From: Nanobdellota archaeon
GTDB lineage: Archaea > Nanobdellota > Nanobdellia > Woesearchaeales > UBA10107
Assembly: GCA_042571125.1 (NCBI GenBank)
Contig: JBHPFU010000001.1
Location: forward strand, 259,230 to 323,229
Direction of reading: 5' to 3'
Length of the DNA stretch: 64,000 nt
In this document: piece after piece, positions 27,811 to 55,554 of the stretch
Position numbering within the stretch: position 1 is the stretch's first letter
Layout of the letters: each line of letters begins with the position of its first letter
Position numbers and translations under genes: made by a program
The notes under the pieces: generated by a model
Told to the model about the DNA's origin: nothing
Databases searched by the model: none
What the model saw: the letters and a program-made list of their open reading frames with translations, nothing else

Positions 27811-28746
27811 ATGAAAAAACCAACAACAACCGGAACTTGTCTTACAGCGCTAGGAATGTTAGTAGCACCTAATCTAGCTAATGCTCAAGAACATAAACTT
27901 TTCCCGACTGCAATAGAAATTTCTGATAAAGAATATGCGATTTATGAAACTTCACAAGAAGATGGAGAAAGACAACTGCTTGAATTATCAAAAAGACATG
28001 ATAGAGAAGATGCATGGATATTCAAAGATGGTGTAAATCCGATATGGATAGATGTTGGAGGAAAAAATAAAACTAAAGAGGCAAAAACAGAAGAAGGGTA
28101 TAGAATGCAGGCATCTGTTCAAACAGTACTTGAAGATATGCTTTTCCAAAAAAAAGAAGATGTAATAACACTTTATCACACTCACCCATTAATCACAAAA
28201 AAGTTTCTTGAAAGATCGCTGCCCTTTGAAGCTCCAACTATTGATGATTTTATTTTGCTTTTTAAAGATACAAAAGTAATGAGAAAACTTCTTCCTTCCT
28301 CACAATTTCCCAGTTTCAGAGATTATGCCTCTTGCGCATCAAAAAAAGTAGATATGCGTAGATTACCGAACGTTAGATTAAAACCAAGCAGAATAGTCGG
28401 TCCTTTGTTAACAGTATCGTATGATGTTGATAATCCTATTGATGGGCTTGAAGAAGCATTAGATGCTATGAATGAAAAATATTCCGAAGTATATTCAAAA
28501 AAGCACGGATTAAAAGAAATGGCAGAAATGTATGTTAGAGATGCAAAAAAATTAGGAATAAAGTTAGAGATAATATCTTTTAATTATTCAGAGGATAATA
28601 TCGCAACGAAAGAATACAAAGACGGCAGGAAAGTATTTATGCAGTCTCTAGATGGCAATCCCAAAATAATTTTGTATGATGAGAATAATAAAAGAATAGA
28701 AGAATTAGAATGGGGAGGATCCGAATTACTTCAAAACTCAGATTAA
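27811..28746 (+). CDS. Secreted JAB/MPN-like protein, paralog 1
   Basis: Start at ATG 27811 (MKKPTTTGTCL...ANA signal peptide); REDAWIF, ITLYHTHP, APTIDD. Confidence 0.55.
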   Translation: MKKPTTTGTCLTALGMLVAPNLANAQEHKLFPTAIEISDKEYAIYETSQEDGERQLLELSKRHDREDAWIFKDGVNPIWIDVGGKNKTKEAKTEEGYRMQASVQTVLEDMLFQKKEDVITLYHTHPLITKKFLERSLPFEAPTIDDFILLFKDTKVMRKLLPSSQFPSFRDYASCASKKVDMRRLPNVRLKPSRIVGPLLTVSYDVDNPIDGLEEALDAMNEKYSEVYSKKHGLKEMAEMYVRDAKKLGIKLEIISFNYSEDNIATKEYKDGRKVFMQSLDGNPKIILYDENNKRIEELEWGGSELLQNSD

Positions 28747-28747
28747 A

Positions 28748-29467
28748 ATGAAAAAACCAAATACAGCATTAACTTGCGGAGTCAGTCTTGCAGCACTTTT
28801 GGCTAGCGGAGGCTGCTCTTCAGTAGAAGTAAGAGATATTAGCTATCAGCCAGACCGGATTGATGTATATCGCGGTCAGGAAGAAAGAGTTTATCATCTA
28901 ACACAAGAAGAAGGAGAAAAGCAGCTAGTAGAACTTGCTAAACAAGGAAAGCAAGAAGACGCATGGATATTCAAGCATGGAGAAAACCTTTGGATTGATG
29001 TGGGAAAGAGAACATACCCTGGAAGAAAAGATAAAGTATCTGTTGATCCAAACAGAGCCCTAAAATTCTTAACAGAAGGAGATGAAATAACATTTTATCA
29101 TTTCCATCCTTGGCGCAGGTTTGAGACAATCCTTTTTGAAGAAAGGAGAAAAAATATGTTTATTAATCTCCCCCCTGAAGACGATTATGCTGCTCATATT
29201 TACCTAAAGACAGAATTTCCTAAAATGGGGGTCTCTGTTAACCCAAGCAGAGTCGCAGGAGCACTTTTTACAGTCTCTTACGATTTAGATAAACTAAAGA
29301 ATGAAAGAGAGCTAGAAAGAGAACTAAAATCTCTGGCAGACAGGACTATTCTGAACAGTTGGGGAGATGATCTTAACAAGAAAGTTGAAGATTATATCGA
29401 TAAAGTAAAAGAATTAGGGATAGACCTAAAAATAATTAATTATAATCATCCAGCGTTAATAAAATAA
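28748..29467 (+). CDS. Putative lipoprotein, JAB/MPN-like, paralog 2
   Basis: Leader ending LASGGC; QEDAWIF, WIDVG, ITFYHFHP, PPEDD, PSRVAG..TVSYD shared with upstream paralog. Confidence 0.55.
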   Translation: MKKPNTALTCGVSLAALLASGGCSSVEVRDISYQPDRIDVYRGQEERVYHLTQEEGEKQLVELAKQGKQEDAWIFKHGENLWIDVGKRTYPGRKDKVSVDPNRALKFLTEGDEITFYHFHPWRRFETILFEERRKNMFINLPPEDDYAAHIYLKTEFPKMGVSVNPSRVAGALFTVSYDLDKLKNERELERELKSLADRTILNSWGDDLNKKVEDYIDKVKELGIDLKIINYNHPALIK

Positions 29468-29469
29468 AA

Positions 29470-29763
29470 TTATTTCTGATTTTCTAATTTCTTAAGAACA
29501 GAATCCATCACAACGAAGATGTTCTGCCCAGTGACTTCTGATGTGTTAACTTTTCCGTTATCAGTAAGTTTCCCATGCACTTCAAACTGGCTGTTACCAA
29601 CTTTCTTCATGGTCAAACCTAACTTTTCAAACTTTTCGGATCTGTCAGAAAACTTTCTTGCATAAGATCCTACAATCTTTTTAACAACAACAACTTGAGC
29701 TCTATCTAGCTCTTTAAATCCAGTTAACTCTATTCCTCCGCCAAGAACAAGTGTGTCATCCAT
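29470..29763 (-). CDS. Small protein, possible RaiA/HPF-like fold
   Basis: beta-alpha-beta-beta-beta-alpha pattern ending NIFVVMDSVLKKLENQ; GGGGTGA RBS. Confidence 0.5.
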   Translation of the reverse strand: MDDTLVLGGGIELTGFKELDRAQVVVVKKIVGSYARKFSDRSEKFEKLGLTMKKVGNSQFEVHGKLTDNGKVNTSEVTGQNIFVVMDSVLKKLENQK

Positions 29764-29840
29764 ACAAATTCACCCCATCCCTATTTTTATATTAGTATGT
29801 ACGCAAAGTTTAATAACTTTTCTCTTAATATATCAAAATC

Positions 29841-31055
29841 ATGAAGATATATATTGAAACAATGGGTTGTTCAGCAAATCTGAGCAATGCTGAGATAATG
29901 GCAGGGTTATTAGAAGATGCGGGGTACGAAATAGTAGATTCTGAAGTCGGAGCAGACTTAATAATATTTAATACATGTATAGTCAAAGGACCTACTGAAA
30001 AAAGTTGTATAAAAAGAATAAATGAAATAAAAAAACCTTTGATTGTGACTGGTTGCTTTGCAAATATTCCAGAGTTAACAAAAGAATTGAAACATCCTGT
30101 TCTAAGTACATATAATATTACTCAAATTGTTGAGACTGTTAAGGACTTAACAAGTAGAACAGAAAGAAAATACGAAGAAAAACTTAACATATCAAAGAAA
30201 AGAAAAAATAATTTAATAAATATTGTTCAAATATGTGAAGGATGCCAGGGAAACTGTACTTATTGTATCACTAAACTAGCAAAAGGAGATTTATTTGTTT
30301 ACCCAGAAGATAAAATCTTAAAAGAAGTTGAAACTTCAATAAAGCAAGGTTGCAAAGAAATATGGTTAACAGCACAGGATACAGGATGTTATCCTAACTT
30401 ACCTAGCTTACTAAATAAAATATGTTCTTTAGAGGGAGATTTTAGGGTTAGATTAGGAATGATAAATCCTAATCATGTTCTAAAATTCTTTCCAGAATTA
30501 ATTCAGTCCTTAAAAAACAAAAAAATGTTCAAATTCTTGCACATTCCTGTACAGGCAGGAAATGACAGAATATTAAAATTAATGAATAGATTTTATACGG
30601 TTGAAGACTTTAAAAAAATAGTAAAAGAATTAAGAAAGGAAATTCCAGATCTAACAATCTCAACAGATGTTATCTGCGGGTTCCCAACAGAAACTGATGA
30701 AGAATTTAACCATTCTTTAGAACTGATAAAAGAAACAGAACCAAACGTAATAAACATATCACGATTCTGGCCGAGAGGGAAAACAAAGGCAGCAGAAATG
30801 GAGCAATTAAACGGAAGAATAACAAAAGAAAGATCACAAAAACTAACAAAATTATTCAATGATATTAAATTGAAACAAAAACAAGCTTTGATTGGTAAGG
30901 AATTCTCAATATTAATAGACGAAAAAGGAAAGGATAATACAATGGTAGGAAAAACAGATAATTATTTAGCTGTTGTTGTAAAAAATGCTAAATTAGGAGA
31001 AAGGCTGAAAGTTAAAATAATCGATGCCAGAAAAGATTGTTTGTTTGCTGATTGA
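29841..31055 (+). CDS. tRNA methylthiotransferase (MiaB-like, archaeal MtaB type), radical SAM + TRAM
   Basis: ETMGCSAN, NTCIVK, VTGC, EGCQGNCTYC, HIPVQAG, TDVICGFPTET, C-terminal TRAM. Confidence 0.9.
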   Translation: MKIYIETMGCSANLSNAEIMAGLLEDAGYEIVDSEVGADLIIFNTCIVKGPTEKSCIKRINEIKKPLIVTGCFANIPELTKELKHPVLSTYNITQIVETVKDLTSRTERKYEEKLNISKKRKNNLINIVQICEGCQGNCTYCITKLAKGDLFVYPEDKILKEVETSIKQGCKEIWLTAQDTGCYPNLPSLLNKICSLEGDFRVRLGMINPNHVLKFFPELIQSLKNKKMFKFLHIPVQAGNDRILKLMNRFYTVEDFKKIVKELRKEIPDLTISTDVICGFPTETDEEFNHSLELIKETEPNVINISRFWPRGKTKAAEMEQLNGRITKERSQKLTKLFNDIKLKQKQALIGKEFSILIDEKGKDNTMVGKTDNYLAVVVKNAKLGERLKVKIIDARKDCLFAD

Positions 31056-31066
31056 AATGATTAAAT

Positions 31067-31561
31067 CTAATCTTGTCTCGGGTTTTGTAAATCTGCCCAG
31101 AATACCACATCTCTTGAAAAGTCTAGACTATAATCGCTGATTTTAAACCCTTCATCTTTTAATGCACCGACCAAAGTAATTTCTGGTCTTCTCACAGTTT
31201 TATCGATTTCTCTGATTTCCTTTCCTGCTCTATCTCCAAGCAATTCCCATATCAAAGAAAGAAAAGAAGGATCTTTTGCATATTTATTTATTTTAGCTAA
31301 GTAAGATTCAGTTTCTTTAGAAGGATTGGCTTGTTGATTACATAGACCACATCCCCCCGTATGACTTCCCTTGATGCTAGTTGAATGGTCTGGCTGATCA
31401 GAATAAGTTGACTCAACATTTACTCTAAAAACATCTTTTGGTTGACCGTCCTTGTGATAAGACAGATGAAATTCGTAGGAAAGGTCCTGGTTAGTTCTAA
31501 CTATTATCCCCTTAGGCAATACTCTTTCTAATTCTCTTGAAACAACTTCTATGTGACTCAT
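31067..31561 (-). CDS. Hypothetical protein
   Basis: 164-aa ORF with HTGGCGLC motif; TATA upstream. Confidence 0.55.
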   Translation of the reverse strand: MSHIEVVSRELERVLPKGIIVRTNQDLSYEFHLSYHKDGQPKDVFRVNVESTYSDQPDHSTSIKGSHTGGCGLCNQQANPSKETESYLAKINKYAKDPSFLSLIWELLGDRAGKEIREIDKTVRRPEITLVGALKDEGFKISDYSLDFSRDVVFWADLQNPRQD

Positions 31562-31673
31562 GTTTAAATTAAATTAGACCCCTCTTTATATATTTTTCTA
31601 CTTGATAGTAATGATATGCATATATATAAACTAATCCAACATAATCTTATAAAAACAGAGGATAGTGATTGAT

Positions 31674-32990
31674 ATGCCAACACATCAACAAAAAATAAAG
31701 AGAATTATAAAACAGTTAAAAGAACGCAAAAGTACTAAACCAGTATCTTTAAAGAAAAAAACTGTTTCTCATGAAGTTCCCAAGCTAAAGGATAAGAGAC
31801 ACTTAGATGAGAAGATCGACATCAGCGATTTAAATGATATTATTAGTATTGACCCAAAAAAGAAGATTTGCATTGCAGAGCCAGGAGTCACTTTTGTTGA
31901 TTTGGTAAATGCTACTTTTAAGTATGGTCTTGTTCCTATTACTGTTCCAGAATTAAAGACAATTACAATCGGGGGAGCAGTTGCAGGCTGCTCAATAGAA
32001 TCAATGTCATTCAAACATGGAGGATTCCACGATACCTGCCTTGAATATGAAGTTATTACTGCAAAAGGAGATGTGCTTATTTGTACTCCTAACAATAAAA
32101 ACAGTCTGTTGTTCCAGATGATTCATGGTACATTCGGAACCCTGGGGATAATCTCAAAACTGAAGTTTAAGTTAATACGTGCTAAACCATTTGTGAAAGT
32201 AGTCTATGAAAAATACAACAATCTTGAAGATTACAAGTCAGCAATATGGAAGCATTTCAAGAATAAAGATGTTGATTTCATGGACGGGATAATTCATTCT
32301 CCAACAGAATGGGTACTCAGTGTGGCAAAGTTTGTTGATAATGCGCCGTACACCCACAGTTATGATTGGATGAGAATTTATCACAAGAGCACAAGAGAAC
32401 GAAAAGAGGATTACCTCGAAACTCCTGATTATTTTTTTAGGTATAATAAAGGCATAACCAAGGTTTCTCCTAAATCTTTTTTAGGCAGGCTCCTCTTTGG
32501 AAAATTCATAAATTCTACTGTAGTCCTGAGAACAGCTGAAAAGTTTCGCAAGTTTATTCCTTCCAGCAGAATCCCTGTTACTGTTGATCTCTTTGTGCCA
32601 TTCTCAAAAGTCAACAAGTTTTTTAAGTGGTATGAAAAAGAGATTAACTTTTTTCCATTATGGTGCGTGCCATACAGGTGCCCGCATAAATATGAATGGA
32701 TGTCTAAGAATTTCACGGATAAAACAAAAGATGAACTTTTCTTGGACTTGGCGATTTATGGAATGAAAAAGAAGAGCGGCAAGAATTATTATAAGATTAT
32801 AGAAAAGGCATTGCTGAAACTTGGATGTATCAAGACGCTTATCTCGAGTAATTATTACTCTGAATCAGATTTCTGGAAAACATGGAATAAGGAGAATTAT
32901 TTTAAGGTCAAGAATAAAACTGATCCAAATAATATTTTTCGTGATCTTTACACAAAAACCTGTAAAACAACAAGAGGTTTAGGCAGGTAA
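31674..32990 (+). CDS. FAD-binding (VAO/PCMH-type) oxidoreductase, DHCR24/Rv3719-like
   Basis: AEPGVTF, VPELKTITIGGAVAGCSIESMSFKHGGFHD, GTFGTLG, PLWCVP, KTDPNNIFRDLYTK. Confidence 0.85.
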   Translation: MPTHQQKIKRIIKQLKERKSTKPVSLKKKTVSHEVPKLKDKRHLDEKIDISDLNDIISIDPKKKICIAEPGVTFVDLVNATFKYGLVPITVPELKTITIGGAVAGCSIESMSFKHGGFHDTCLEYEVITAKGDVLICTPNNKNSLLFQMIHGTFGTLGIISKLKFKLIRAKPFVKVVYEKYNNLEDYKSAIWKHFKNKDVDFMDGIIHSPTEWVLSVAKFVDNAPYTHSYDWMRIYHKSTRERKEDYLETPDYFFRYNKGITKVSPKSFLGRLLFGKFINSTVVLRTAEKFRKFIPSSRIPVTVDLFVPFSKVNKFFKWYEKEINFFPLWCVPYRCPHKYEWMSKNFTDKTKDELFLDLAIYGMKKKSGKNYYKIIEKALLKLGCIKTLISSNYYSESDFWKTWNKENYFKVKNKTDPNNIFRDLYTKTCKTTRGLGR

Positions 32991-32991
32991 A

Positions 32992-33636
32992 TTATCTAGT
33001 TCGCTCATAAATATGTTGTAAACCAGTTCCTGGTTTGTCTTGTTCCATCTGTTTACTTTGGTTTCCTACCCGATAAGCTAATTCTCTTGTACCTTTTCCT
33101 TGGAATGCTATATGAATTAACTGCTTCGCAATCCAAAGTTTTCTTTCATCCCCTTCTTTAGGTAAACCCTGTGAAGACATATCCAAATAAAAAGAGGCTA
33201 CTGCATCAGCGGCAATTTTATAATGGGGTATTATTCTATTGAACATATTCATATCTCCTATTTTCAGAACAAGCGCCCAATCAAGATATCCTTTTTCATC
33301 AAACCTAGGTTCAGAAACCTCAACAACCCCAGACCCCCTTTTGTATGCAACAGGATGCCTATTTAATCCTACGCCACCAAACGGGTCATTATCAACAACT
33401 CTCGCATCCTTTTCTCCAATAACATAAATAGAATCAGTTACTTCTTCTAACGCTCTCTTTTTTCTGCTATCTGAAAGATGCTGCGTAAATACATTAAATA
33501 CAGGAGAAACTCTTTTTCTTAATCTGCTTTTATCTACTTTCAAAGCAGTTCTTTCAAGATAATCCATTTCTGCTATTGCGGCAGCAGCACCTACTGATGG
33601 CATTTCATTCCCCCATAAATTAAGAAGAGTATCCAA
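32992..33636 (-). CDS. Hypothetical protein
   Basis: 214-aa ORF, start uncertain. Confidence 0.5.
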   Translation of the reverse strand: MDTLLNLWGNEMPSVGAAAAIAEMDYLERTALKVDKSRLRKRVSPVFNVFTQHLSDSRKKRALEEVTDSIYVIGEKDARVVDNDPFGGVGLNRHPVAYKRGSGVVEVSEPRFDEKGYLDWALVLKIGDMNMFNRIIPHYKIAADAVASFYLDMSSQGLPKEGDERKLWIAKQLIHIAFQGKGTRELAYRVGNQSKQMEQDKPGTGLQHIYERTR

Positions 33637-33762
33637 CTTATAAATATTTCTATAAGATATTTATGGCTGGATGGTGACGATAAGTCAACTTAAAAATTGA
33701 ATCTAATGTTGTTAGGTTCCCTACGAAGCAGGTAGAACGAAAAAGAAAGATTAATAACTTTG

Positions 33763-34863
33763 TTAGTTTTTACTAATATCCGCAACCTTCAATTTATACG
33801 TAAACTCAAGGTTATAAAATCTGTCCACATCTTCTGGGCAAATAAATGTTAAAGAATATCCTGGCTTATCGATCCTTCCTGTTCTTCCTATCCTATGTAT
33901 ATAGAATTCTTCTTTTGTAGGCACATCATAGTTTACTACTATGTCAACCTTTTCAATGTGAAGACCACGAGATGCAACATCTGTTGCAACTAGAATCTTG
34001 ATCTTTCCATCCTTGAACAAATTAAGATGATTAAGTCTTTCAGTCTGTTCAAGATCGCTGTTTAATGATTTGGCATTGAAACCATTATCCTGCAAAAATT
34101 CAGATATGTTGTATGATTTTAGTTTTGTGTTGCAGAATACCATTGCGCGTTTGAATTTTCTTTTTGAGAATAGATTTAGCAATATTTCATTTTTCTCTAA
34201 TTTTTCACAATATAACTTTTCCTGTACAATATTTTTAGGAATTAATTCACCAATACTCAATAATTCATAATCAACCATCTCATTCTCTATGAAACTTTTA
34301 ACTTTGTCAGTCATTGTTGCCGATGAGAATACAATCTGTGCATTTTTACTTACTCTTTGTTTCATGTATACGCAATCATCATAGAATCCGTTGTCAAACA
34401 TCTGGTCAGATTCGTCATAAACTAGGTATTGGACTTCACCAACTTTGATTTTTTTCTCGTTTACATGGAGAAGAAGTCTTCCTGGAGTTCCTACTATAAT
34501 CTGGTTTTTTTTACTTAATGTTCTTGAATCTCCTGGAACATCTCTTCCACCATAAAGCATTCCAACATTAACTCCTATTGGTTCACAGACTTTTTGCATT
34601 TCCTTGCCTACCTGTATACAAAGTTCTCTTGTAGGTACAAGAACTGCCATTTGAATTCCTTGTTTTTTATTGATTTTTCCTAAAAAACCTAAAAGATATG
34701 CAAGCGTCTTTCCGCTTCCTGTTCTGGATGTGAAAGCAAGGTGTTTTCCTTTTATCGCCAATGGTACTATTTTATCTTGTACTTCAAGCGATTCATTAAG
34801 TTTTAGTTTAGATAAAACATCAAGAATTTCTTTTTTTAATCCTAGTTTAGTAAAATCTCCCAT
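33763..34863 (-). CDS. DEAD-box RNA helicase (core only; motif II DESD)
   Basis: Q motif, TGSGKT, PTREL, TPGR, DESD, SAT, ATDVASRG, HRIGRTGR. Confidence 0.93.
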   Translation of the reverse strand: MGDFTKLGLKKEILDVLSKLKLNESLEVQDKIVPLAIKGKHLAFTSRTGSGKTLAYLLGFLGKINKKQGIQMAVLVPTRELCIQVGKEMQKVCEPIGVNVGMLYGGRDVPGDSRTLSKKNQIIVGTPGRLLLHVNEKKIKVGEVQYLVYDESDQMFDNGFYDDCVYMKQRVSKNAQIVFSSATMTDKVKSFIENEMVDYELLSIGELIPKNIVQEKLYCEKLEKNEILLNLFSKRKFKRAMVFCNTKLKSYNISEFLQDNGFNAKSLNSDLEQTERLNHLNLFKDGKIKILVATDVASRGLHIEKVDIVVNYDVPTKEEFYIHRIGRTGRIDKPGYSLTFICPEDVDRFYNLEFTYKLKVADISKN

Positions 34864-34888
34864 CGTAAGAATGAATTATTTGTTAAAC

Positions 34889-35359
34889 TTATTTTTTGGT
34901 AGTCTTAGAATCTTTTTTAATCTTTGCTGCTTTCACGACAGGTTTTTTTGTGTTCTCTAATGCTTCCATTATTTTATCGAGTTTTTGATTAATTTCCTCA
35001 AATTCTTTACCATAATCTTTAGAACCAGAACTTCTAGTGCTTGAGCCTGAATCTTTCTTAAAACAATCAGAACAATAAACTGGTTTGTTAGAAGTTGGTT
35101 TAAATGGCACTTCGCATTCTTTGTTACATGTAGCACAAATAACTTTTGTCATTTCTGACCGGTCTGAACTTCTCCCGCCAAATCTTCCGGAATCTCTTCT
35201 GTTAAATCCTCCAGAACTTTCTGAACTCCTTCGGTTGAATCCCCCTGAACCTCTTCTTTCTGAACGGCCGGAATCTCTTCTACTAGACCCCCTATCGTCC
35301 GATTTCTTGGACCATCTTCCCTTGGATTTGCCCGGATCACGAAATTTAAAATCTCCCAT
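34889..35359 (-). CDS. CxxC-x17-CxxC domain protein with R/G/S-rich N-terminus
   Basis: CATCNKECEVPFKPTSNKPVYCSDC; repeated GGFNRR. Confidence 0.88.
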   Translation of the reverse strand: MGDFKFRDPGKSKGRWSKKSDDRGSSRRDSGRSERRGSGGFNRRSSESSGGFNRRDSGRFGGRSSDRSEMTKVICATCNKECEVPFKPTSNKPVYCSDCFKKDSGSSTRSSGSKDYGKEFEEINQKLDKIMEALENTKKPVVKAAKIKKDSKTTKK

Positions 35360-35435
35360 GATTATTTAGTTAAATGGGCCCTTTATAAAGCTATGGTTCA
35401 AGATATTACAAACTAAGTTATATATATTTCCCGGC

Positions 35436-35636
35436 TTATTTCAAATAAGCTTTGTTGAATGGTCTTATTGCTGCTAATACAAAGATTAGACCATACCAGT
35501 ACCAAGCTAAATTAAGCAATGGTGCCCAAAGTTTTGCTATCATTAAAATAAATCCAGCAACACTAAGTTTTATTAGACCCATATCTTTCCAATCCAACTT
35601 TTTTATACCTTTTTTCCATAAGTTTATTAAACTCAT
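35436..35636 (-). CDS. Small membrane protein
   Basis: Two hydrophobic segments; AGGTGA RBS. Confidence 0.7.
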   Translation of the reverse strand: MSLINLWKKGIKKLDWKDMGLIKLSVAGFILMIAKLWAPLLNLAWYWYGLIFVLAAIRPFNKAYLK

Positions 35637-35740
35637 TTTTTCACCTCTTTTTATTATACGTGCATTGTTAGAGTATATAATCTTTACTAAAAATTATTTA
35701 AAACAAATAATTTTAAATAAAAAGGCATTATTATATTGTT

Positions 35741-36145
35741 ATGTCAGATCAAAAACCTAGATTAACTAGTGCAGTTCTTGTGGTTCAAGATGGAAAATAT
35801 CTTTTAGCTGAAAGAAATAAAGAAAATTATAAAGGATATTGGATAATTCCTGGCGGTGGTGTCAAATTTGGAGAAACAGTACAAGAAGCAGCCATCAGAG
35901 AAATTAAGGAAGAGACAAATCTTGACGTAGAAATAATAAAGTTAATAGGTCATAAAGAAGTAATAAATGTTCCAGGAGAATATCACAGTATTGTTTTTTT
36001 CCATCTTGCAAAACCAAAGCACACAAATATTGAAGCCAAAGAAGATGTTTCTTCGGCAAAATTCTTTGATATAGAAGAAATAAAAAAATTAAAAATAGCT
36101 AAAAGTGTAGAATGGGCTTTGAGAGAAGCAGGCTTTTGGAAGTAA
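35741..36145 (+). CDS. NUDIX hydrolase
   Basis: PGGGVKFGETVQEAAIREIKEETNL Nudix box. Confidence 0.92.
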   Translation: MSDQKPRLTSAVLVVQDGKYLLAERNKENYKGYWIIPGGGVKFGETVQEAAIREIKEETNLDVEIIKLIGHKEVINVPGEYHSIVFFHLAKPKHTNIEAKEDVSSAKFFDIEEIKKLKIAKSVEWALREAGFWK

Positions 36146-36215
36146 ATTCTTGTTTTCTATTAAGTAAATGTTGTTATCCGAAAACTATTTAAAACAATTA
36201 AACTTAGATTACAAT

Positions 36216-36599
36216 ATGAAAACAATATTAGTTGATGCGGTTAATGCGTTTGTGATTAAAGGCGAAGGTATCTTTCAAGAAATGCATGAACTTCTTGAAG
36301 AGTATTCTAATAGAAAAATAATACTAACTAATGCTAATGCTGAAGAGAGGGAAAAATTTGGATTAAACAATGTTCCATATGAACTTTTTACATTAGAACA
36401 TAGCCCAGAAAAAACAGACCCAGAATATTTCAAAACCATGCTCCAGCATTTTAATTTAGACGCAAATGACGTAATTTACTTTGAACACAACGAAGATGCC
36501 GTAAAAAGTGCTCAGTCAGTAGGAATAAATACATTCCATTATGATAAAGATAAAAAAGATTTAATCTCATTAAAGAAGTTCATAGATGAAAATGTCTAA
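36216..36599 (+). CDS. HAD-superfamily hydrolase-like protein
   Basis: ILVDAVN, ILTN, EKTDPEYF, YFEHNEDAVKSAQSVG. Confidence 0.75.
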   Translation: MKTILVDAVNAFVIKGEGIFQEMHELLEEYSNRKIILTNANAEEREKFGLNNVPYELFTLEHSPEKTDPEYFKTMLQHFNLDANDVIYFEHNEDAVKSAQSVGINTFHYDKDKKDLISLKKFIDENV

Positions 36600-36810
36600 A
36601 ATAACAAAAGATATGACAATTGGAGATATTATTTCCAAACATCCGGAAGCAGCCTTTGTTATGATGAAGTATGGTCTGCATTGTGTAGGATGTCATGTTG
36701 CTGCAGATGAAACTTTAGAACAAGGATGTATTGCTCACGGATTAGATGAGAAAAAAATAAAAGAATTAATAAAAGAAATCAATCAGTCTTTGGAGAAGAC
36801 TTCTTCTTAA
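36592..36810 (+). CDS. DUF1858 (hybrid-cluster-associated redox disulfide) domain protein
   Basis: ITKDMTIGDII..HPE...GLHCVGCHVA..ETLEQG..AHG. Confidence 0.88.
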   Translation: MSKITKDMTIGDIISKHPEAAFVMMKYGLHCVGCHVAADETLEQGCIAHGLDEKKIKELIKEINQSLEKTSS

Positions 36811-38427: not shown

Positions 38428-38431
38428 TAAA

Positions 38432-46658: not shown

Positions 46659-47013
46659 GCTCAGTGCCCATATAAAAATCTCCACTGCTAAAAAGATGAA
46701 TACCTAATTTTTTTGTAAGTTCATAGAAATCATGTTTTGGGAATTTTTTCATTGGATCATCGGTTCCAACAATAATCGAAGTTGGAAGACCAGAATTAGT
46801 TTTGTTTCCTACCAAAACTTCATAACCTCTTTTTGATAATTGTTGTTTTAGGATTTCTGCTGCTTTAGGAATATCTTTTGTTATTCCATGTCTTTCCCTT
46901 ACTTCTTCAATCATAATAAGTTCTCCTAAGTCAGTGTCTGTTTCTTGAGAAGCAAGAAGATTATTCGTTATTGCTTCCCAATTGATATTAAACTGTTGGT
47001 ATAGTTTTGTCAT
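46648..47013 (-). CDS. Hypothetical protein
   Basis: 121-aa ORF with upstream TATA. Confidence 0.5.
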   Translation of the reverse strand: MTKLYQQFNINWEAITNNLLASQETDTDLGELIMIEEVRERHGITKDIPKAAEILKQQLSKRGYEVLVGNKTNSGLPTSIIVGTDDPMKKFPKHDFYELTKKLGIHLFSSGDFYMGTEPSN

Positions 47014-47126
47014 TTTTATTTTATCTTGCCTGTCAAATTTATAAATTTTTTCATTTTAAAGTAATTACAATCTTATCTTCAAACATTCTCAAAACCTTTA
47101 TAAATATCACTCTATATTGTTAATAT

Positions 47127-47672
47127 ATGGCTGAAGATATGGATTTTAAGGCTACAAGACATAGTGCGAGGATTAGATTCGAAGGACTGGCAGATATGGA
47201 AGGCCTTTTTCAGATGATCCGTGAATGGCTCCACTATAGAAGATTTGAGGTTCATGAACCAGCTCATAAAAGGAAACCAATGCCTCGCGGTTTTGAGCAT
47301 GAAACTACATTCTATGGAGAAAGAAAAGAATCAGACTATGTTATGTTTATAATTAATGTATATGTGCACTCTCATTTCACAGAAGATGTAGAGATAATAG
47401 AAAACGGAGTAAAGAAAAAGATACAAAAATCAGGATCTATGGTTATCGAAATCTGGCCTACTCTAAGATTAGACTGGCAAAACAGATGGGAAACATCAGA
47501 ATTCAAAAAGAAACTTAGAAAGTTCTTTCATGACGTGATAATCAAAACATACATCGAGATTATTTGGTGGGACAGATTGTACTATATTACATACAAATTG
47601 CATACAAAAATCAAAGAATTTTTAAATATGCAGAGCCATTATAACGCATATGAGAATATGTGGCAGACCTAG
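47127..47672 (+). CDS. Hypothetical protein, paralog of downstream gene
   Basis: Shares FEGL/YEGI, DY..[FY].I.V, DW/DI...RWE and LH..[IV]K.FLN with 47682. Confidence 0.75.
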   Translation: MAEDMDFKATRHSARIRFEGLADMEGLFQMIREWLHYRRFEVHEPAHKRKPMPRGFEHETTFYGERKESDYVMFIINVYVHSHFTEDVEIIENGVKKKIQKSGSMVIEIWPTLRLDWQNRWETSEFKKKLRKFFHDVIIKTYIEIIWWDRLYYITYKLHTKIKEFLNMQSHYNAYENMWQT

Positions 47673-47681
47673 GTGACCAAA

Positions 47682-48182
47682 ATGCCTGAAAGAAAAATTG
47701 TTGTTGACGAACTGCATCTGGATTACGAAGGTATATTCGATGCAACACAATTGCTTAATGTAATTGAGGATTTCTTTAGAACTCGCGGTTTTGACAAGAG
47801 AGAACTTAGCAATGTTGAGAGTGTAAGACCTTCTGGAAAACATATTGAACTTGTTCTTATGCCTTGGAAAACAGTAACAGACTATGCAAGATATGAGATT
47901 AAAGTAAAAATTGACATGGACAATCTTAAAGAAGTTGATGTTAAGAAGGACGGAGCTAAGCTTAAACTTAACCAGGGCAAAATAAAGTTTGTATTTGATT
48001 CATACTTACTTACAGATATCGAGGGCAGATGGGAAGCAAAACCAATATTCTTCTTCATAAGAACATTTGTTGATAAGTTCTTCTTTAGGTTCTATACTAG
48101 CAAATGGGAAGAACAACTTATCCAGTATACAAAAGAGCTTCATGGAGAAGTCAAATCATTCTTGAATTTAAACAGATATTAG
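47682..48182 (+). CDS. Hypothetical protein, paralog of upstream gene
   Basis: AGGTGA RBS; same motifs as above. Confidence 0.75.
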   Translation: MPERKIVVDELHLDYEGIFDATQLLNVIEDFFRTRGFDKRELSNVESVRPSGKHIELVLMPWKTVTDYARYEIKVKIDMDNLKEVDVKKDGAKLKLNQGKIKFVFDSYLLTDIEGRWEAKPIFFFIRTFVDKFFFRFYTSKWEEQLIQYTKELHGEVKSFLNLNRY

Positions 48183-48227
48183 CAAAACTTTTAAAAACAA
48201 ACTAGCTTAGTTCTAGATATCCTTTAT

Positions 48228-48349
48228 GCGGGGGTAGCAAAGTCTGGTCAAATGCGCAGGACTTAAGATGGGACAGCACAACACCGGTTGTGTATAAGAT
48301 ATCCTGTCCCTTAGTGGGTTCGTGGGTTCGAATCCCATCCCCCGCACCA
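48228..48349 (+). tRNA. tRNA-Leu(TAA) with 33-nt intron (48268-48300), encoded CCA
   Basis: GCGGGGG/CCCCCGC-ACCA, anticodon stem CAGGA/TCCTG, long variable arm; BHB helix CTTA/TAAG. Confidence 0.93.
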
Positions 48350-48358
48350 TTCTATTTT

Positions 48359-48430
48359 GCCCCATTGGCTTAGTGGTAGAGCACTGCCTTGGTAAGGCAG
48401 AGACCCCGAGTTCGATCCTCGGATGGGGCT
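48359..48430 (+). tRNA. tRNA-Thr(GGT)
   Basis: GCCCCAT/ATGGGGC, CTGCC-TTGGTAA-GGCAG, CCGAG-TTCGATC-CTCGG. Confidence 0.95.
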
Positions 48431-48591
48431 GTTTTTACTACTGACATATAACAAAAAGAGAAAAGTTTATATACTCCTATAGGGTATAGAGAATACTGAG
48501 AAGGGGTTGGTAATAGACGAAATAAAGGCTTAAATAGGCTGATTTGAGCTCTATTTGGCTAATAAACAGCAAATATAGGTGCAATAATAAA

Positions 48592-50223
48592 ATGAGTCAA
48601 GAAATACAGTATGAAAATGAAAATAAAGCTAATTTAGGTTCTAAAGTTTTTATCGCAGGTCTTGCATTAGCAACACCAGCACTTCTTAGTGCAGGAGAAG
48701 CTGAAGTTAAGAACATTCTAAAAGGAAGTACAGACATTAAAATATATCAAGCAGGAGATACAGGATTCGAACATTATGTTAATAAGAAAAATACATTTGA
48801 TTTAAGCACAATAGATCAAGCAAAAGCAAGTATTCTTGCAGCTTATACAGACAATGATGGAAAACGTTGGGCTACTGTTTATGATGCTAAAGACAAAAAT
48901 ATATCAAATAGAATTCCTATGTGGAGTAAAGTTGAAAAAGCCGCATGGAAATCTATGGGGGAGAATATAAGTCCAGAAGAGCTTGAAAAAGCACAAGATC
49001 ATTATTTAAGACAGTTCAATAGAGATGAAAGCAAGATAACAGATGCTTTTGATTCTTGGGAAAAGAACATAAAAGGAAAAACAACTGTAGCATACCAAGG
49101 TAAGCCATTATCAGCTGTACCTGAACTAAGGTACGCTTCTCTTGATCCAAACAAGAGTAATCGAGCTCTAAATCACAGATTTGTTCGTGAAAGCGGTATA
49201 GCTGGAAAAAAGTTCTACAAATATGAGCAAATTGATTCCACAACTATTGATGGAACTGTATGCGGTGGTTGCGAACTTACAGGCCCCGGTCTTATCACAT
49301 TTATCAGCCCAGAAACAGGACAAGTTGAGTTCTATGCTGGCAAGGATGGAAAAATCAAGAAATTAAAATCTCCGACAGATGATTCAAGAGCTATCAGCGA
49401 AGCATTCATAAATGCAGATAGAGGAAACAAGTATTTTGATCTAGAAGGAAGCTTTACTTTAGTTCCACTTAATAGAGCAGCATCAGATTCACAAACTTCA
49501 CCAACAAAATACGGAAGTAAGTTCTCACTTGATAATATGCTTAGAGTTCAAGTTAAAGTTCCTAAAGTTGGCGGAGAACTTGATGTTGTATTAGAACATG
49601 AGAGACAAAGATACAAAAATCCTGAGTTTGCTGAAGAATTAACAAACACAGACAAAAGAATGAGAATTGGATACTTGAAAGATGTCAAAGGAATAAATCT
49701 GGGAGCTGGATTAACAATGCCAGGACAGAAATTTGTTGCGGATACAACAGATGATACTCCAAATCACATTGTAAATCCGATTGCAGTCGAACTTAACTCA
49801 AAAGGAAAAGGCGGATATGCTTTACTAGAAGTAGGAGATTCATATTTCTTGCTTGAAGCAAGCGAATCCGATGTTAATCAAAAAACTACAAATCTTGCTG
49901 TTCCTATACCTAGTGAACAAACTACTGAAACAAACGGAAGAGCAAGCGAAACAAGAATCGCAATGGGATCGCAGTATAATGGATTAGGTCGCGTACATCC
50001 TTCATTAGCAAAGTACAGCCTTGTTGGAGCGATTGAGATCTCAAACAAGAGAGGAATGATTCATAACAGAACTATTGATCTTAAGTATGGTGTTAAGGCA
50101 AATGTAATAGAAGGACTAAACGCATACGTAATGCTTAAGAATGGAATGGAATCTGGAAAAGATGTGATAGGTTCAAGTACAGTAGGCATGAAAATAGGAG
50201 CAGAATACAAATTCGGAAAATGA
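48592..50223 (+). CDS. Exported protein with C-terminal amphipathic beta-strand (barrel-like) region
   Basis: ATG 48592; hydrophobic leader VFIAGLALATPALLSAG; alternating strands ending GMKIGAEYKFGK. Confidence 0.55.
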   Translation: MSQEIQYENENKANLGSKVFIAGLALATPALLSAGEAEVKNILKGSTDIKIYQAGDTGFEHYVNKKNTFDLSTIDQAKASILAAYTDNDGKRWATVYDAKDKNISNRIPMWSKVEKAAWKSMGENISPEELEKAQDHYLRQFNRDESKITDAFDSWEKNIKGKTTVAYQGKPLSAVPELRYASLDPNKSNRALNHRFVRESGIAGKKFYKYEQIDSTTIDGTVCGGCELTGPGLITFISPETGQVEFYAGKDGKIKKLKSPTDDSRAISEAFINADRGNKYFDLEGSFTLVPLNRAASDSQTSPTKYGSKFSLDNMLRVQVKVPKVGGELDVVLEHERQRYKNPEFAEELTNTDKRMRIGYLKDVKGINLGAGLTMPGQKFVADTTDDTPNHIVNPIAVELNSKGKGGYALLEVGDSYFLLEASESDVNQKTTNLAVPIPSEQTTETNGRASETRIAMGSQYNGLGRVHPSLAKYSLVGAIEISNKRGMIHNRTIDLKYGVKANVIEGLNAYVMLKNGMESGKDVIGSSTVGMKIGAEYKFGK

Positions 50224-53200
50224 ACAAAACAACACTTTCAATATTTTTAGTATTTCTTTTATGTTTAGTTACTGTATCCGCTACTGGAGGAGTGGTTGTA
50301 ACACCAAGTTCTGCTCAGGTTGGAGCTACACTAACATGTTCAATGCCAGGAGAAAGAGCTAATGATAATTTTTACTGGTCTGGAGCTGTCAGTACAACTG
50401 GAAAAGTTGTTTCTGCAAACGTACCAGGAACATACACCTGTATAATTAAAAGAAATTATCCTCAGGTTGGAGAACTTGAACTAGGAAGAGCTTCTGCAAC
50501 AATAAGTGCAGTACCAGTACCGCCTCCTGTAAATCAAGCACCTACTGCTAATTTTAATTCAAATTCACCCGTAGTTAACGGAACAAATGTCACATTCACA
50601 GATACAAGCACAGATTCTGACGGAACTGTTGTTGCATGGGAATGGAACTTTGGAGATAGTGCAAATTCAACAGTACAAGATCCACAACATCTTTATTCAA
50701 CAACTGGAAACTATACTGTAACACTAACAGTTACTGATAATGATGGAGCAGCTAGCACACCATTCAATAGTGTAGTAGAAGTTACATCAGTTCCAACAAC
50801 ATGCCCTGCACCAGCAAGCGGAAACTGGACAATAAACGGAACACAAAATGTATATTGTGAGGGTGTAACATTAAATTTAGATCAAATAGATATATATGAC
50901 AGCGCAACAGCTGTTTTCAATAATTCTGCCCTAAATATAAATAATGGAATAAGTACAAATAATAATACAATTTTAACTTTAGAAAATTCAACATTGGATG
51001 AGATATACGCAAATGCTAATTCATCTATTAGTGTTGTAAATTCAAACATCACTGACGAAATCGATGTATCTGACAATGCTACTCTTAATGTACAAACAAG
51101 CGATGTTGATGAAATATATTCTACAACAGACGCAAATGTTAACGTAGATAATTCTATTGTTTCAGTTCTAACAATTAACTTAATTGGGGGAGGATCATAC
51201 TCCGGTCTTATTGCAGGAACAACAGTGACAACCACAGTAGGAACTGTTAATCTTGTAAACACCTATGTTGGTTCTGTAGGAGTACAGTTCGCAAATGGAA
51301 TTTTCAATATAGATTCATTCCAACTTAATATGGTTTCTTGGATATTCCCTGATGTCACATTAAACATGCTAGATTCAACTTTAGATGAAATTTTTATTAC
51401 ATCAAATACGCTTTTTAATGCAGATAATGTAACAATTAATGACATACAGTTAATGGGAGACAATTCAACAGTTAATTTCACATCATCTACTTTAGTACAG
51501 TCACTTAGAGCAAACGTAATTGCGACTTTTAATAATTACATACTTGGAACTGTTAACATGTTAGTGCCTCCTTTAGCGACTCAAATACAAGTAAACAACA
51601 CACTCGAAAGACACTACCCTGTTACTGTTGTTAATCAAACAGGACCAATGAATGGAGCTCAAGTTAATATTACTAATTCAACAAGCGATGTTTTATTCAG
51701 CGGAGCAACAGATGCGACAGGAAACTTAGAAGTGGTTCTGACATTTGATAATAACACTGAGGCAGATGTTTATGATGTTTATGTTGATGGAAATCTTCAA
51801 GGAAATATAAGTTTGCTGACAAGCACACCAATTATAATCAATATTAGTTCAATACCGCTCCCGCCTATTGAATTAATCTTAGTAAACGAATTCGAGCAAA
51901 ATCCTATTGTTAATGGAACAGAATGGGTAGAGCTTTACAACCCAGGAGCATCCACAGTTGATATCAGCGCATGGGAGATATGGGATGGATTAACAACACC
52001 TAGCTTGATACACACTGTTCCTGCAAACACAACACTTGCTGCTGACAGTTATTATGTAGCAAATATAAGCGGTACTCAACTGAATAATGCAGATGAATAT
52101 GTAACACTTTACGATCAATATTCAAGAGAGGTAGATAATACATCAACACTAGCAGATGCAGCACCTTTAGCATACTGTTGGGCAAGATTCCCTAATGGTG
52201 CACCAAGTTGGAATTTCCAGAACTGTACATACGGAGCAACAAATAACCTTCCTGGCGTAAACTTACCGCCACAGATAACATCAAATTTCACACTTCCTGA
52301 TGTATCTTCATCTATTAATATTTCAACTAATGTAACGTTCTTCATTAATGTAATGGATCCTGAAGGTAGCAATATGACTATTAACTGGTCTGTTGATGGG
52401 GTGGTTAATCAAACATACCTTGATTATCCGAATGGTTCAGCACTTGTACCAACTTTAGATTATACATTCGATGAAAATAGAAGCTATCTTGTAGAAGTAT
52501 TTGTTTATGATAATGAATCAGCTTATGATTACATGAACTGGACAGTACAAGTTGTTAATGGAACTATTCCAGACACAACAGCACCAGCAGCAATCACAGG
52601 ATTGGCTTTGATAGGAGCAACTAATGAGACATTAACATGGACATGGATGAATCCTGCAGACCCTGATTTCGATCATACAATAGTTTTCCTTGACGGAGTG
52701 AATGTTGTAAATATAACAAACAGCGGTACTGGCGTGGATAATTATACTGCAACAGGATTGCTTAATTACACGCAGCACACAATCAATGTTCATACTGTTG
52801 ATACATCTGGAAACGAAAACCTAACAAATGTAACAGATACTCAATTTACATTACAGAATAATGATACAACAGCACCGGTTATATCAAATGTTCAAGCAGT
52901 AAGCATTACAAATGAATCTGCAATAATCAACTGGACTACAGATGAAGCATCAGATTCAAGCATAAACGTGGAAGGCACTGTAAACACATTCATTGGTCTG
53001 GTAACTAATCACTCAGTTCCAACGCCTGGAACACTAGCACCAAACACAACATACTTTTATAATGTAACAAGCTGTGATGCTAATAGTAACTGCGCAACAT
53101 CAGTTCAATACAACTTTACAACACAAGCAAATATAAACCTAGCACCAAATGCTACAATCACAAATCCATTAACAGGAAGCCAATACCAGAACGGATCAGC

Positions 53201-55031
53201 AATCGTATTCAATGGTACAGGGGTTGACCTAGAAGATGGAAACCTGACAGGAGCATCATTAGTATGGACTTCTGACTTAGATGGAGCACTAGGAACAGGA
53301 AATGGATTATCAGTTTCAACATTAACTATTGGAAATCACACAATCACATTAACAGCAACAGATTCAGGACTTTTAACAGATAATGATTCAATACAAGTTG
53401 AAGTAATTTTAACACCAACAAATAATCAGCCAGTATTTGATAGTTCAGCTGTTAATACAAATGTTCATGTTACATCACCGTACTCATTTGATGTAAATGC
53501 AAGCGACGCAGATCTATTAGATGTACTAACATTTACAGATAACCTTGCTGAGTTTGTTATTAATTCAACAAGCGGACTAATCACATTCACACCAAATACA
53601 GTAGGAATGGTTAGCGGAATATTAACAGTTTGTGATAACTCTGGATTCCCTAATAACTGTACAAACCAAACATTTGACTTAAATGTTACAAACAGTGCAC
53701 CACAATTCAACACATCAGCTGTAAACACAAATGTTCATGTAGGCACATTATTCACATTTGATGTAAATGCATCAGATGCTGACCTTGACACTCTATCATT
53801 CACAGATGATATTGCTGAGTTTGTTATAGATCCAGTTACAGGAGTAATCAGCTTTACACCTGCTAATATTAGTACAATCGCAGGAACAATTACTGTTTGC
53901 GATAACACAGAATCACCAAACAACTGTACAACTCAAGCATTCAATCTTGATGTTACAAACAACGCACCAGTTCTAAACGGAATTGGAGCTCAGGCAGTTA
54001 ACGAAGGTTCATCTTTGAACATTCCTTTAAGTTCAACTGACGCTGACAGCGATACATTAGTACTTGCTGCATCTAACTTACCTAATGGTTCAAGTCTTAC
54101 AGATAATGGAGACGGAACAGGATCATTCAACTGGACACCAGGATTTGCTGACTCAGGAGTTTATGTTGTTACATTCAATGTAACAGATCCTTACAATGGA
54201 TTAGATTCAGAAGCTGTTACAATTACTGTAAATGATAATGTTCAAAACGGATTTATTGACGGATTTGTAAGAGATGACTTAGGAGGAGATATTGCAGGAG
54301 CAACAGTTGAAATCAAAAACGGATCATTCACAGTGGCTTCAGGAATATCTGGGATCACAGGATACTTCAACATAACTATAACTGAAGGAACATACGATGT
54401 TTTAGTATACTCACTAGGATTTGTTGATAACCAAACAAACGGAGTTGTTGTAACTGAATTTGCAACAACAAGAAATAATGCTACTCTACAGACTGTTGTA
54501 ACGACTGGAGACATAAATGGTACTGTAACAGACGGTACAAATAATATTTTCGCAGCAACAGTTCAATTAAAACAAGGAGCATCTGTAATCGCTTCAACAA
54601 CAACAGATATGTTCGGATACTATTCATTTACTGGAGAAAATATTGGTGCATATGATTTAGTTGTAATCAAACCAGCATTTACTGACTCAACAACTGCTGT
54701 AAGTATCTCAGCAACACCAACTACACAAAATGTTGTATTATCAGCACCTGGAACTGCAGGAACAATCTCAGGAACAATAAGAGATGCTCTAAACGCTCCA
54801 ATAACTGCTGTAACAAATGTAACAATCACAAGTTCAACAACAGGAGTTGTACAAATTGTCCAAACAGATGGAACTGGTTACTATGTATTTAACGGATTGC
54901 CAGCAACTGTTGGATTTACTTATGATCTAGATGCTGATCTGGTAGGAGCATACACACAAACATTCCCACCATCAGGATTATCATTAACACAAGGACAAAA
55001 TCTTGCTGGACAAGATATTTACATGATATAA
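50220..55031 (+). CDS. Large secreted surface glycoprotein (PKD, beta-helix-like, lamin-tail, FN3, Ig/cadherin-like, carboxypeptidase-regulatory-like domains)
   Basis: Signal peptide; PKD WEWNFGD..P.HLY; LTD VNEFEQNP..EWVELYN; FN3 segments; many N-x-S/T sequons. Confidence 0.85.
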   Translation: MNKTTLSIFLVFLLCLVTVSATGGVVVTPSSAQVGATLTCSMPGERANDNFYWSGAVSTTGKVVSANVPGTYTCIIKRNYPQVGELELGRASATISAVPVPPPVNQAPTANFNSNSPVVNGTNVTFTDTSTDSDGTVVAWEWNFGDSANSTVQDPQHLYSTTGNYTVTLTVTDNDGAASTPFNSVVEVTSVPTTCPAPASGNWTINGTQNVYCEGVTLNLDQIDIYDSATAVFNNSALNINNGISTNNNTILTLENSTLDEIYANANSSISVVNSNITDEIDVSDNATLNVQTSDVDEIYSTTDANVNVDNSIVSVLTINLIGGGSYSGLIAGTTVTTTVGTVNLVNTYVGSVGVQFANGIFNIDSFQLNMVSWIFPDVTLNMLDSTLDEIFITSNTLFNADNVTINDIQLMGDNSTVNFTSSTLVQSLRANVIATFNNYILGTVNMLVPPLATQIQVNNTLERHYPVTVVNQTGPMNGAQVNITNSTSDVLFSGATDATGNLEVVLTFDNNTEADVYDVYVDGNLQGNISLLTSTPIIINISSIPLPPIELILVNEFEQNPIVNGTEWVELYNPGASTVDISAWEIWDGLTTPSLIHTVPANTTLAADSYYVANISGTQLNNADEYVTLYDQYSREVDNTSTLADAAPLAYCWARFPNGAPSWNFQNCTYGATNNLPGVNLPPQITSNFTLPDVSSSINISTNVTFFINVMDPEGSNMTINWSVDGVVNQTYLDYPNGSALVPTLDYTFDENRSYLVEVFVYDNESAYDYMNWTVQVVNGTIPDTTAPAAITGLALIGATNETLTWTWMNPADPDFDHTIVFLDGVNVVNITNSGTGVDNYTATGLLNYTQHTINVHTVDTSGNENLTNVTDTQFTLQNNDTTAPVISNVQAVSITNESAIINWTTDEASDSSINVEGTVNTFIGLVTNHSVPTPGTLAPNTTYFYNVTSCDANSNCATSVQYNFTTQANINLAPNATITNPLTGSQYQNGSAIVFNGTGVDLEDGNLTGASLVWTSDLDGALGTGNGLSVSTLTIGNHTITLTATDSGLLTDNDSIQVEVILTPTNNQPVFDSSAVNTNVHVTSPYSFDVNASDADLLDVLTFTDNLAEFVINSTSGLITFTPNTVGMVSGILTVCDNSGFPNNCTNQTFDLNVTNSAPQFNTSAVNTNVHVGTLFTFDVNASDADLDTLSFTDDIAEFVIDPVTGVISFTPANISTIAGTITVCDNTESPNNCTTQAFNLDVTNNAPVLNGIGAQAVNEGSSLNIPLSSTDADSDTLVLAASNLPNGSSLTDNGDGTGSFNWTPGFADSGVYVVTFNVTDPYNGLDSEAVTITVNDNVQNGFIDGFVRDDLGGDIAGATVEIKNGSFTVASGISGITGYFNITITEGTYDVLVYSLGFVDNQTNGVVVTEFATTRNNATLQTVVTTGDINGTVTDGTNNIFAATVQLKQGASVIASTTTDMFGYYSFTGENIGAYDLVVIKPAFTDSTTAVSISATPTTQNVVLSAPGTAGTISGTIRDALNAPITAVTNVTITSSTTGVVQIVQTDGTGYYVFNGLPATVGFTYDLDADLVGAYTQTFPPSGLSLTQGQNLAGQDIYMI
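53421..53960 (+). repeat. Internal tandem duplication (~270 nt x2) of an Ig/cadherin-like module
   Basis: SAVNTNVHV..FDVNASDADL..FTD..AEFVI...G.I.FTP...TVCDN...PNNCT.Q.F.L.VTN occurs twice. Confidence 0.85.
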
Positions 55032-55032
55032 A

Positions 55033-55554
55033 ATGAAAAAACCAAATGCAATTTTAACTTGCGGCGTTGGCCTGGCAGCAGTTTTGGCTAGCGGAGGCGC
55101 TTGTTCAACACTACAAAATACAGGAAGCACAGCAAGACAAGAGATGGTGGAACAAAGTAAAGCTTTTGAAAAACAAGGAGATTACGATAAAGCAGTTTCA
55201 TACTTAGCAGAAGCAGGCGAATATAGAAAAGCTAGCAGACTTGCGGAGAGAGAGAAACTTTACAGTACTGCTGCGCATTGGGCAGAATGGGCAGGACAAG
55301 AATATACTGCAAAAAGATTATACAAAGAAGGTCTTGAAGTCTATGAAAAAACAGGAGATTATGGTAATGCTGCACGATGTGCAAACGGATTAGGTCAGAT
55401 CGAAAAAGCAATCCTATATTATGAAAAAGCGGGAGAGTATTCTGTTGCTGGCCACCTTGCAGAAGAAGAAGGTATGTTTGAAGAATCAGAACGACTTTAC
55501 AAAAAAAGTAGAGAATCAAAAAAACCGAATAAGGTCGAGTATCGCTTAAAATGA
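55033..55554 (+). CDS. Putative lipoprotein with TPR/SNAP-like repeats
   Basis: Leader MKKPNAILTCGVGLAAVLASGGAC; repeats FEKQGDYDKA, YEKTGDYGNAA, YEKAGEYSVA. Confidence 0.75.
   Translation: MKKPNAILTCGVGLAAVLASGGACSTLQNTGSTARQEMVEQSKAFEKQGDYDKAVSYLAEAGEYRKASRLAEREKLYSTAAHWAEWAGQEYTAKRLYKEGLEVYEKTGDYGNAARCANGLGQIEKAILYYEKAGEYSVAGHLAEEEGMFEESERLYKKSRESKKPNKVEYRLK

Follow-up and report, generated by a model that had tools for sequence, protein, structure and literature searches.

The 64,000 nucleotides analysed here (the window, G000:C1:259230-323229) come from the genome of a Nanobdellota archaeon, G000, which comprises 803,570 bases in 10 contigs with a G+C content of about 34% and is 80.75% complete. 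The window contains two genes, at 28748 and 55033, which lie 26 kb apart on the forward strand, begin with nearly the same leader and continue into unrelated proteins. The first copy of the leader (28748..28819, +) has 24 codons and encodes MKKPNTALTCGVSLAALLASGGCS, a lipoprotein-type signal peptide whose lipobox cysteine is residue 23; it opens the gene of a JAB/MPN-like secreted protein of 239 amino acids, a probable lipoprotein (28748..29467, +). The second copy (55033..55107, +) has 25 codons and encodes MKKPNAILTCGVGLAAVLASGGACS, with an extra alanine codon ahead of the cysteine, which is residue 24; it opens the gene of a TPR protein of 173 amino acids (55033..55554, +), which lies in a surface-protein operon. 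An earlier note on this DNA had described the pair as one leader grafted onto unrelated proteins, and its sequences and coordinates for the leader genes were confirmed by re-reading.

Counted from the ATG, 56 of the first 66 bases are identical in the two genes. The same 66 bases were compared among 2,171 starts of open reading frames (ORFs) of at least 100 amino acids from the whole genome (the first start of each ORF and the ATGs early in it), and among the resulting 2,355,535 pairs this is the only one with at least 42 matches. The background, from a sample of 200,000 pairs, has a mean of 20.9, a standard deviation of 3.8 and a maximum of 41, which places the observed value about 9 standard deviations above the mean. 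In blastn searches of the genome, either leader retrieves the other at 85.7% identity over 70 nucleotides (E 7e-11), and the only further matches are a stretch of 17-18 identical bases at 27811 and 12-14-mers expected by chance. At the peptide level, where 154 starts of the genome that resemble signal peptides were scored over their first 26 residues, the pair reaches 98, followed by 27811 with 46, and no score of the background exceeds 39. The similarity thus clearly exceeds that among random signal peptides of the genome, the level at which the earlier note would have given up its claim.

Homology is confined to a short tract with sharp ends, from roughly -10 to +84. Of the 24 aligned codons, 15 are identical, five differ synonymously and four carry conservative replacements (T/A, A/I, S/G, L/V); one codon indel comes in addition. 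At the positions which encode the same residue, the initiator methionine left out, the codon itself is identical in 14 of 19 cases, compared to 7.69 expected from the codon usage of the genome (P = 0.0025). Because codon identity exceeds this expectation, the two leaders share a common descent and have not converged, and the five synonymous differences show that the copying was not recent. The mature parts of the two proteins show no homology (BLASTP E 45), and a relation between the JAB-like and the TPR parts was rejected on this basis. The earlier observation of a shared leader on unrelated mature parts therefore holds, for a pair that is unique in the genome.

The gene at 28748 belongs to a tightly coupled row of three genes, in which it follows a tandem paralog of 311 amino acids (27811..28746, +; 33% identity, E 2e-31). 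The leader of this paralog, MKKPTTTGTCLTALGMLVAPNLANA|QE, has no lipobox cysteine and ends in an AxA-type sequence resembling a signal peptidase I site. Curated models give little on the two proteins: no Pfam family matches the 28748 protein, the 27811 protein has only a sub-threshold match to DUF357, and NCBIfam has no match for either. An exhaustive HMMER search retrieved 72 family representatives at E ≤0.001, 18 of them at ≤1e-10. In an alignment of 31 sequences picked from the 72 (A1), from which fragments and multidomain proteins were left out, E70, H118, H120, P121, P142, S143 and D146 are nearly invariant. Five of these residues (E70, H118, H120, S143 and D146) are kept in at least 90% of the 31 sequences and all five are present in the 27811 protein; the 28748 protein keeps E70, H118, H120 and D146 and has a proline at the near-invariant Ser143. 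The resulting E...HxH...S-x-x-D pattern is what we take to be the JAMM motif.

The AlphaFold model of the 28748 protein (pLDDT 85.3, pTM 0.81) predicts an MPN fold. VIA-align matches it to RadC (2qlc_E, Z 9.1, root-mean-square deviation (rmsd) 3.4 over 111 residues) and to PfJAMM1 (5lda_A, Z 8.2, rmsd 3.4 over 114 residues), and MPN-fold chains make up most of the 50 matches listed; the Foldseek matches of the same model are weak, the best having an E value of 0.05 (0.05-0.1 for the MPN matches). JAMM metalloproteases such as P. furiosus JAMM1 (5lda/5ld9), RadC (2qlc), Rpn11 and AMSH share with this family the near-invariant E...HxHP...PSxxD. They are cytoplasmic, whereas the JAB-like proteins are predicted to be secreted or lipid-anchored; the 28748 copy differs further by the proline at the motif serine, and the curated JAB models do not match the family. 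The family also includes, among the proteins numbered P0003-P0073, a domain (residues 1697-1900) of a protein of 4732 amino acids, P0011. The three-gene row starts with a helical protein of 178 amino acids (27273..27809, +), which has no signal peptide and a weak, below-cut-off match to TPR_14; its kinship with the 55033 TPR protein was rejected, as comparison of the two shows no relation (E 2.3).

The leader is native to the JAB-like family. A lipobox-type signal occurs in many of the 72 representatives, and in alignment A1 the lipobox cysteine of the relatives (LLTGC, VLSGC, LMTGC, LGAGC) occupies the column of Cys23 of the 28748 protein. The JAB-like ortholog of G001, from another genus of the same family, reads ...FSGVGLAALLSISPAFA, with the hydrophobic core SGVGLAALL, and the DNA of this core resembles both window copies. 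The native status follows from this alignment of Cys23 with the relatives' lipobox, by the similar core in G001 and by the 27811 paralog, which has the MKKP..T.TC start.

The TPR gene starts one base past the stop of the gene of a giant surface protein of 1603 amino acids (50220..55031, +; PKD, LTD, Big_9 and CarboxypepD_reg) and overlaps by an ATGA the gene of another surface protein of 499 amino acids (55551..57050, +), which has three CarboxypepD_reg stretches and a hydrophobic C-terminal stretch. A direct repeat of 10 bases, TAAAATGAAA, brackets the gene: the left copy (55029..55038, +) consists of the giant gene's stop, one A and ATG AAA, and the right copy (55547..55556, +) begins 518 bases further on, where the 499-amino-acid gene starts. 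The repeat has 34 copies in the genome and also heads the genes at 27811 and 28748. The assignment of the 55033 product as a TPR protein follows from its Pfam matches, to PF23774 (34.0 bits, cut-off 33) and TPR_12 (30.0 bits, cut-off 30.1), with nine further families below their cut-offs, eight of which are TPR or related helical-repeat models, and its Atlas model aligns to TPR proteins with TM-scores of 0.6-0.67. The Atlas feature matches of the TPR body, all at or below 0.83, are leads only.

No homolog of near or longer length was found for the TPR protein among 5.8 billion proteins, nor any in 40 relatives of the archaeon. The genome contains no protein paralog of it, and the DNA matches of the gene are at chance level (the best 16-31 nucleotides). 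Since it lacks homologs, counterparts in the relatives and paralogs, the TPR gene would be the recipient of the leader. A comparison of the surface operon for synteny with five genomes of the same family yielded a single weak match (E 1e-12, 27% identity), and no ancestral state emerges from these relatives. The end of the TPR protein, ...ESKKPNKVEYRLK, is encoded by bases, AAAAAACCGAAT (window 55510-55521), which repeat 11 of the 12 bases following the ATG of the leader (AAAAAACCAAAT); this repeat may be due to chance or be a trace of the construction of the unit.

Among public sequencing runs, X1 is the only DNA run listed with part of the stretch (share 0.05), and no RNA run is listed. One contig of X1 (219 bases, depth 3.6) matches window positions 54974-55038 and 55558-55700 (7 and 10 differences, respectively), and skips the 519 bases from 55038 to 55558, with four other letters between. 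In frame, the giant gene's stop is followed in this contig directly by the beginning of the 499-amino-acid gene. This suggests, from one short contig of one run, that a related organism with flanks about 90-93% identical has no TPR gene at this site; the bridging contig is all that X1 offers for the TPR stretch. A second X1 contig, of 1877 bases, matches only window 55549-55595 (47 bases, in the signal peptide of the 499-amino-acid protein) and is unlike the window on both flanks; it may represent another shared leader, in a different organism.

Both leaders have the charged n-region and the hydrophobic h-region of a signal peptidase II (SPII) signal peptide: lysines 2 and 3 are followed by an uncharged stretch from residue 6 to the lipobox cysteine, and the best 10-residue Kyte-Doolittle hydropathy is 2.23 and 2.31, respectively. 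Under a looser, PROSITE-type lipobox rule both would be accepted. The strict lipobox, in the form in which PMC12462473 quotes it, is [LVI] at -3, [ASTVI] at -2, [GAS] at -1 and C at +1, and neither S-G-G-C (28748) nor G-G-A-C (55033) conforms to it, the residues at -3 and -2 being outside the strict sets. Lipoboxes of the G-A-G-C type are present in two family relatives, P0008 and P0013, and the leader cysteine is homologous to the lipobox cysteine of the relatives. The leaders resemble bacterial Sec/SPII lipoprotein signals in their KK start, hydrophobic core, small residues before Cys23/24 and serine at +2; they differ from them by the Ser or Gly at -3 and a weakly hydrophobic, Ala/Gly-rich core, and the host is an archaeon. 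All in all, lipidation of the leader-bearing proteins is fairly probable.

The enzymes for it are encoded in the genome, and the link to Lgt that the earlier note had proposed is plausible. An intact bacterial-type prolipoprotein diacylglyceryl transferase, Lgt, is encoded in the window (5843..6586, +; PF01790 247.6 bits; TIGR00544 185.6 bits, cut-off 118.9) and was aligned to E. coli Lgt (5azb). LspA is encoded on another contig (G000:C9:2150-2548, L010 1477-1908; PF01252 112 bits; TIGR00077 85.2 bits, cut-off 73.95). When aligned with bacterial enzymes of solved structure, Lgt retains the conserved motifs GR..NFIN.EL.G and EFFR, and those retained in LspA are GNL.DR and FNLAD. Lgt is likely to act on the lipobox cysteine of the leader. 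The genes adjoining lspA have translations which, by eye, resemble aIF1A and ribosomal protein S8e.

Of 151 genomes sampled from the order, 141 have a match to PF01790 above its cut-off and 139 have one to PF01252 (138/148 and 136/148, respectively, when the unpublished genomes G117, G126 and G137, each of which matches both families, are left out). A phylum-level sample gives matches in 76 of 81 genomes, including 11 of the 14 from other orders of the class. According to the passages on the subject in PMC6098224, PMC12462473 and a 2026 preprint (10.64898/2026.03.08.710431), no archaeal homologs of Lgt or LspA are known. Literature searches retrieved no paper reporting Lgt or LspA in these archaea, and PMC8204110 makes no mention of them. 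As to the lipids, a CDP-alcohol phosphatidyltransferase is encoded at G000:C1:173695-174117, UbiA has no match in this incomplete genome and PcrB has only a match below the cut-off. The archaeon may lack a synthesis of ether-lipid cores of its own.

It is likely that the leader of the JAB-like family was copied once, from the 28748 gene onto a lineage-specific TPR gene in the surface-protein operon. The leader would be a Sec-type, lipobox-bearing signal peptide by descent from a secreted JAB/MPN-like family. About 80-95 bases of the 28748 gene, from the TAA-A-ATG junction to a few codons past the lipobox cysteine, would have been copied, presumably by recombination at microhomology, to the 5' end of the unrelated TPR gene 26 kb away, a 518-base unit between the two copies of TAAAATGAAA in the operon. 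The outcome would be an exported TPR protein, probably attached to the cell surface by a lipid through the action of Lgt and LspA, and its fold and the position of its gene suggest that it may act there as a scaffold. The transplanted export/lipidation tag of the earlier note is thus retained as a leader transplanted onto unrelated proteins, while its lipidation, with a lipobox homologous to that of the JAB family, is probable only. A tentative and rather doubtful extension is that TAAAATGAAA, the generic junction of translationally coupled genes in this lineage, is a recombination site through which leader-bearing units enter and leave surface-protein operons, that ultra-small archaea with a bacterial-type Lgt/LspA pathway could in this way make new lipid-anchored surface proteins fast, with the 5' end of a lipoprotein gene already present put to new use, and that the TPR gene is a polymorphic example.

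The case looks like an ordinary kind of event, the one-off building of a gene, and does not reveal a new export class or route. It can be called a clean and datable example of how a new exported protein may be assembled in an ultra-small archaeon, by the reuse of an existing leader on a gene which has no relatives and is apparently absent in a close relative, and it bears on the diversification of the fast-changing cell surfaces of DPANN archaea.

Several points weigh against this account. The lipoboxes, ASGG-C and SGGA-C, are atypical, with Ser or Gly at -3. Twelve clear lipoproteins of the same genome, picked by eye from a list, all carry one of L, V and I at -3 and a Gly at -1, and their cores are rich in Leu, with hydropathies of 2.9-3.8 compared to 2.2-2.3 for the leaders. 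The leaders may instead be cleaved by signal peptidase I and not be lipidated. The absence of the TPR gene at the site comes from one short contig (depth 3.6) of one run, and a deletion between the repeats fits it as well as an insertion does. With 34 copies in the genome, TAAAATGAAA is a common junction motif and weak evidence of a mechanism. The direction of transfer is derived from the family comparison alone, as there is no TPR ortholog to show the state before the graft. Finally, the genome is incomplete, so further copies of the leader could be missing from it.

If both genes already had signal peptides of their own, short-tract gene conversion could have replaced either leader by the other without giving rise to a new exported protein. 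The short and sharply bounded tract is what such a conversion would leave, and the same junction context at both starts would provide homology for pairing. However, an ancestral form of the TPR gene bearing a different leader is not known, it is the whole TPR gene and not the leader alone that is missing from the relative's contig, and at an identity of 85% conversion has been neither recent nor continuing, so that we consider this explanation unlikely. The leader could also have arisen on the TPR gene and been copied to the JAB-like gene, as two near-identical copies give by themselves no direction. Such a reverse transfer is improbable, since the hydrophobic core recurs in the JAB-like ortholog of G001, the lipobox cysteine is a feature of the family, the 27811 paralog shares the first residues and the TPR gene is without any relatives.

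The earlier note had seen in the leader a tag defining a dedicated class of exported cargo, with a role for an extra cysteine (Cys10) at the start of the hydrophobic region. The two leaders do stand apart from the usual Leu-rich lipoprotein leaders of the genome, Cys10 is kept in all three genes that begin with MKKP (27811, 28748 and 55033), and the replacements between the leaders are conservative. However, the genome-wide count that the note had proposed gives exactly two copies and the diverged tandem paralog at 27811, with none elsewhere in the genome, and in this respect it goes against a class, even if the mature regions did prove to be unrelated. No further copy was found in the 40 relatives with up to 3 mismatches, in genome_contigs with two peptide-degenerate DNA patterns or in metagenome_contigs with one, patterns which demand the exact peptide and would miss diverged copies. 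Two types of cargo in one genome and one paralog fall short of the several independent cargo families, within and between genomes, that would define a sorting tag. Neither the leader nor a cysteine at the Cys10 position occurs in the remaining 69 representatives of the family. As the three bearers are related by descent, the conservation of Cys10 is not independent evidence for a role of this residue, and a tag dedicated to sorting or lipidation in which Cys10 is functional is very improbable.

That two signal peptides came to look alike by chance, or by convergence under like constraints, is hardly credible: signal peptides are compositionally simple and the start motifs are frequent in the genome (the counts are given below), but no other of the 2.36 million pairs reaches 42 of 66 bases, the codon identity (14/19) exceeds its expectation of 7.69, and the 56 matches and the peptide score of 98 lie far above the background.

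The proposed single copying of a JAB-family leader onto the TPR gene can be compared with known bacterial systems. The leader families of Mycoplasma (vlp, vsp) and Borrelia likewise combine a near-identical 5' end, with the junction and the prolipoprotein signal, with differing mature parts. Theirs, however, are families of many members in which the 5' end serves phase or antigenic variation, whereas here there are two genes with leaders 85% identical. The bacterial TPR lipoproteins BamD, LpoA, NlpI and PilF, which serve as scaffolds of envelope assemblies, are, similarly, small all-TPR proteins with a lipoprotein-type leader; here the gene lies among large surface-protein genes, and no sequence relation between these proteins and the 55033 protein was found.

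The three MKKP genes each begin one base past the preceding stop in the common context TAAAATGAAAAAACCAA, as had been noted. TAAAATG stands before 91 of 738 proxy genes, and starts with MKK occur in 18 of the 738; because TAAAATG is common, the start context of the MKKP genes is less special than it appears. The gene at 27811 has in common with the leader pair only the 17-18 bases already mentioned and MKKP..T.TC. The weaker kinship that had been proposed for the leader of the gene at 17010 (minus strand, MKNIPKKTTICL...) is not supported: its scores against the three leaders are 32, 22 and 17 (ranks 3, 25 and 71 of 153), which is background level, and it was rejected as a fourth member. An ORF of 207 amino acids on another contig, at G000:C3:48269 (+), starts with MTPNKTLCMTLAALLGTSGGFAG, which resembles the leader weakly (best score 39, at the upper end of the background), and has no lipobox cysteine; it was rejected as a leader copy for its score. 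The start of this protein is followed by a helical region with a DYDKA-like motif.

The genome is archaeal, and the window encodes both proteasome subunits, Rrp4/Rrp41/Rrp42-type exosome proteins, S3Ae, FttA, Pop5 and SBDS. Two tRNA matches on the forward strand, at 10017-10121 (105 bases) and 48228-48346 (119 bases), are found with Rfam and not with ARAGORN; these tRNAs probably contain introns. At 47127-48182 (+), two adjoining proteins of 181 and 169 amino acids lack any Pfam match; they may be tandem paralogs, as their C-terminal ends appear similar on inspection.

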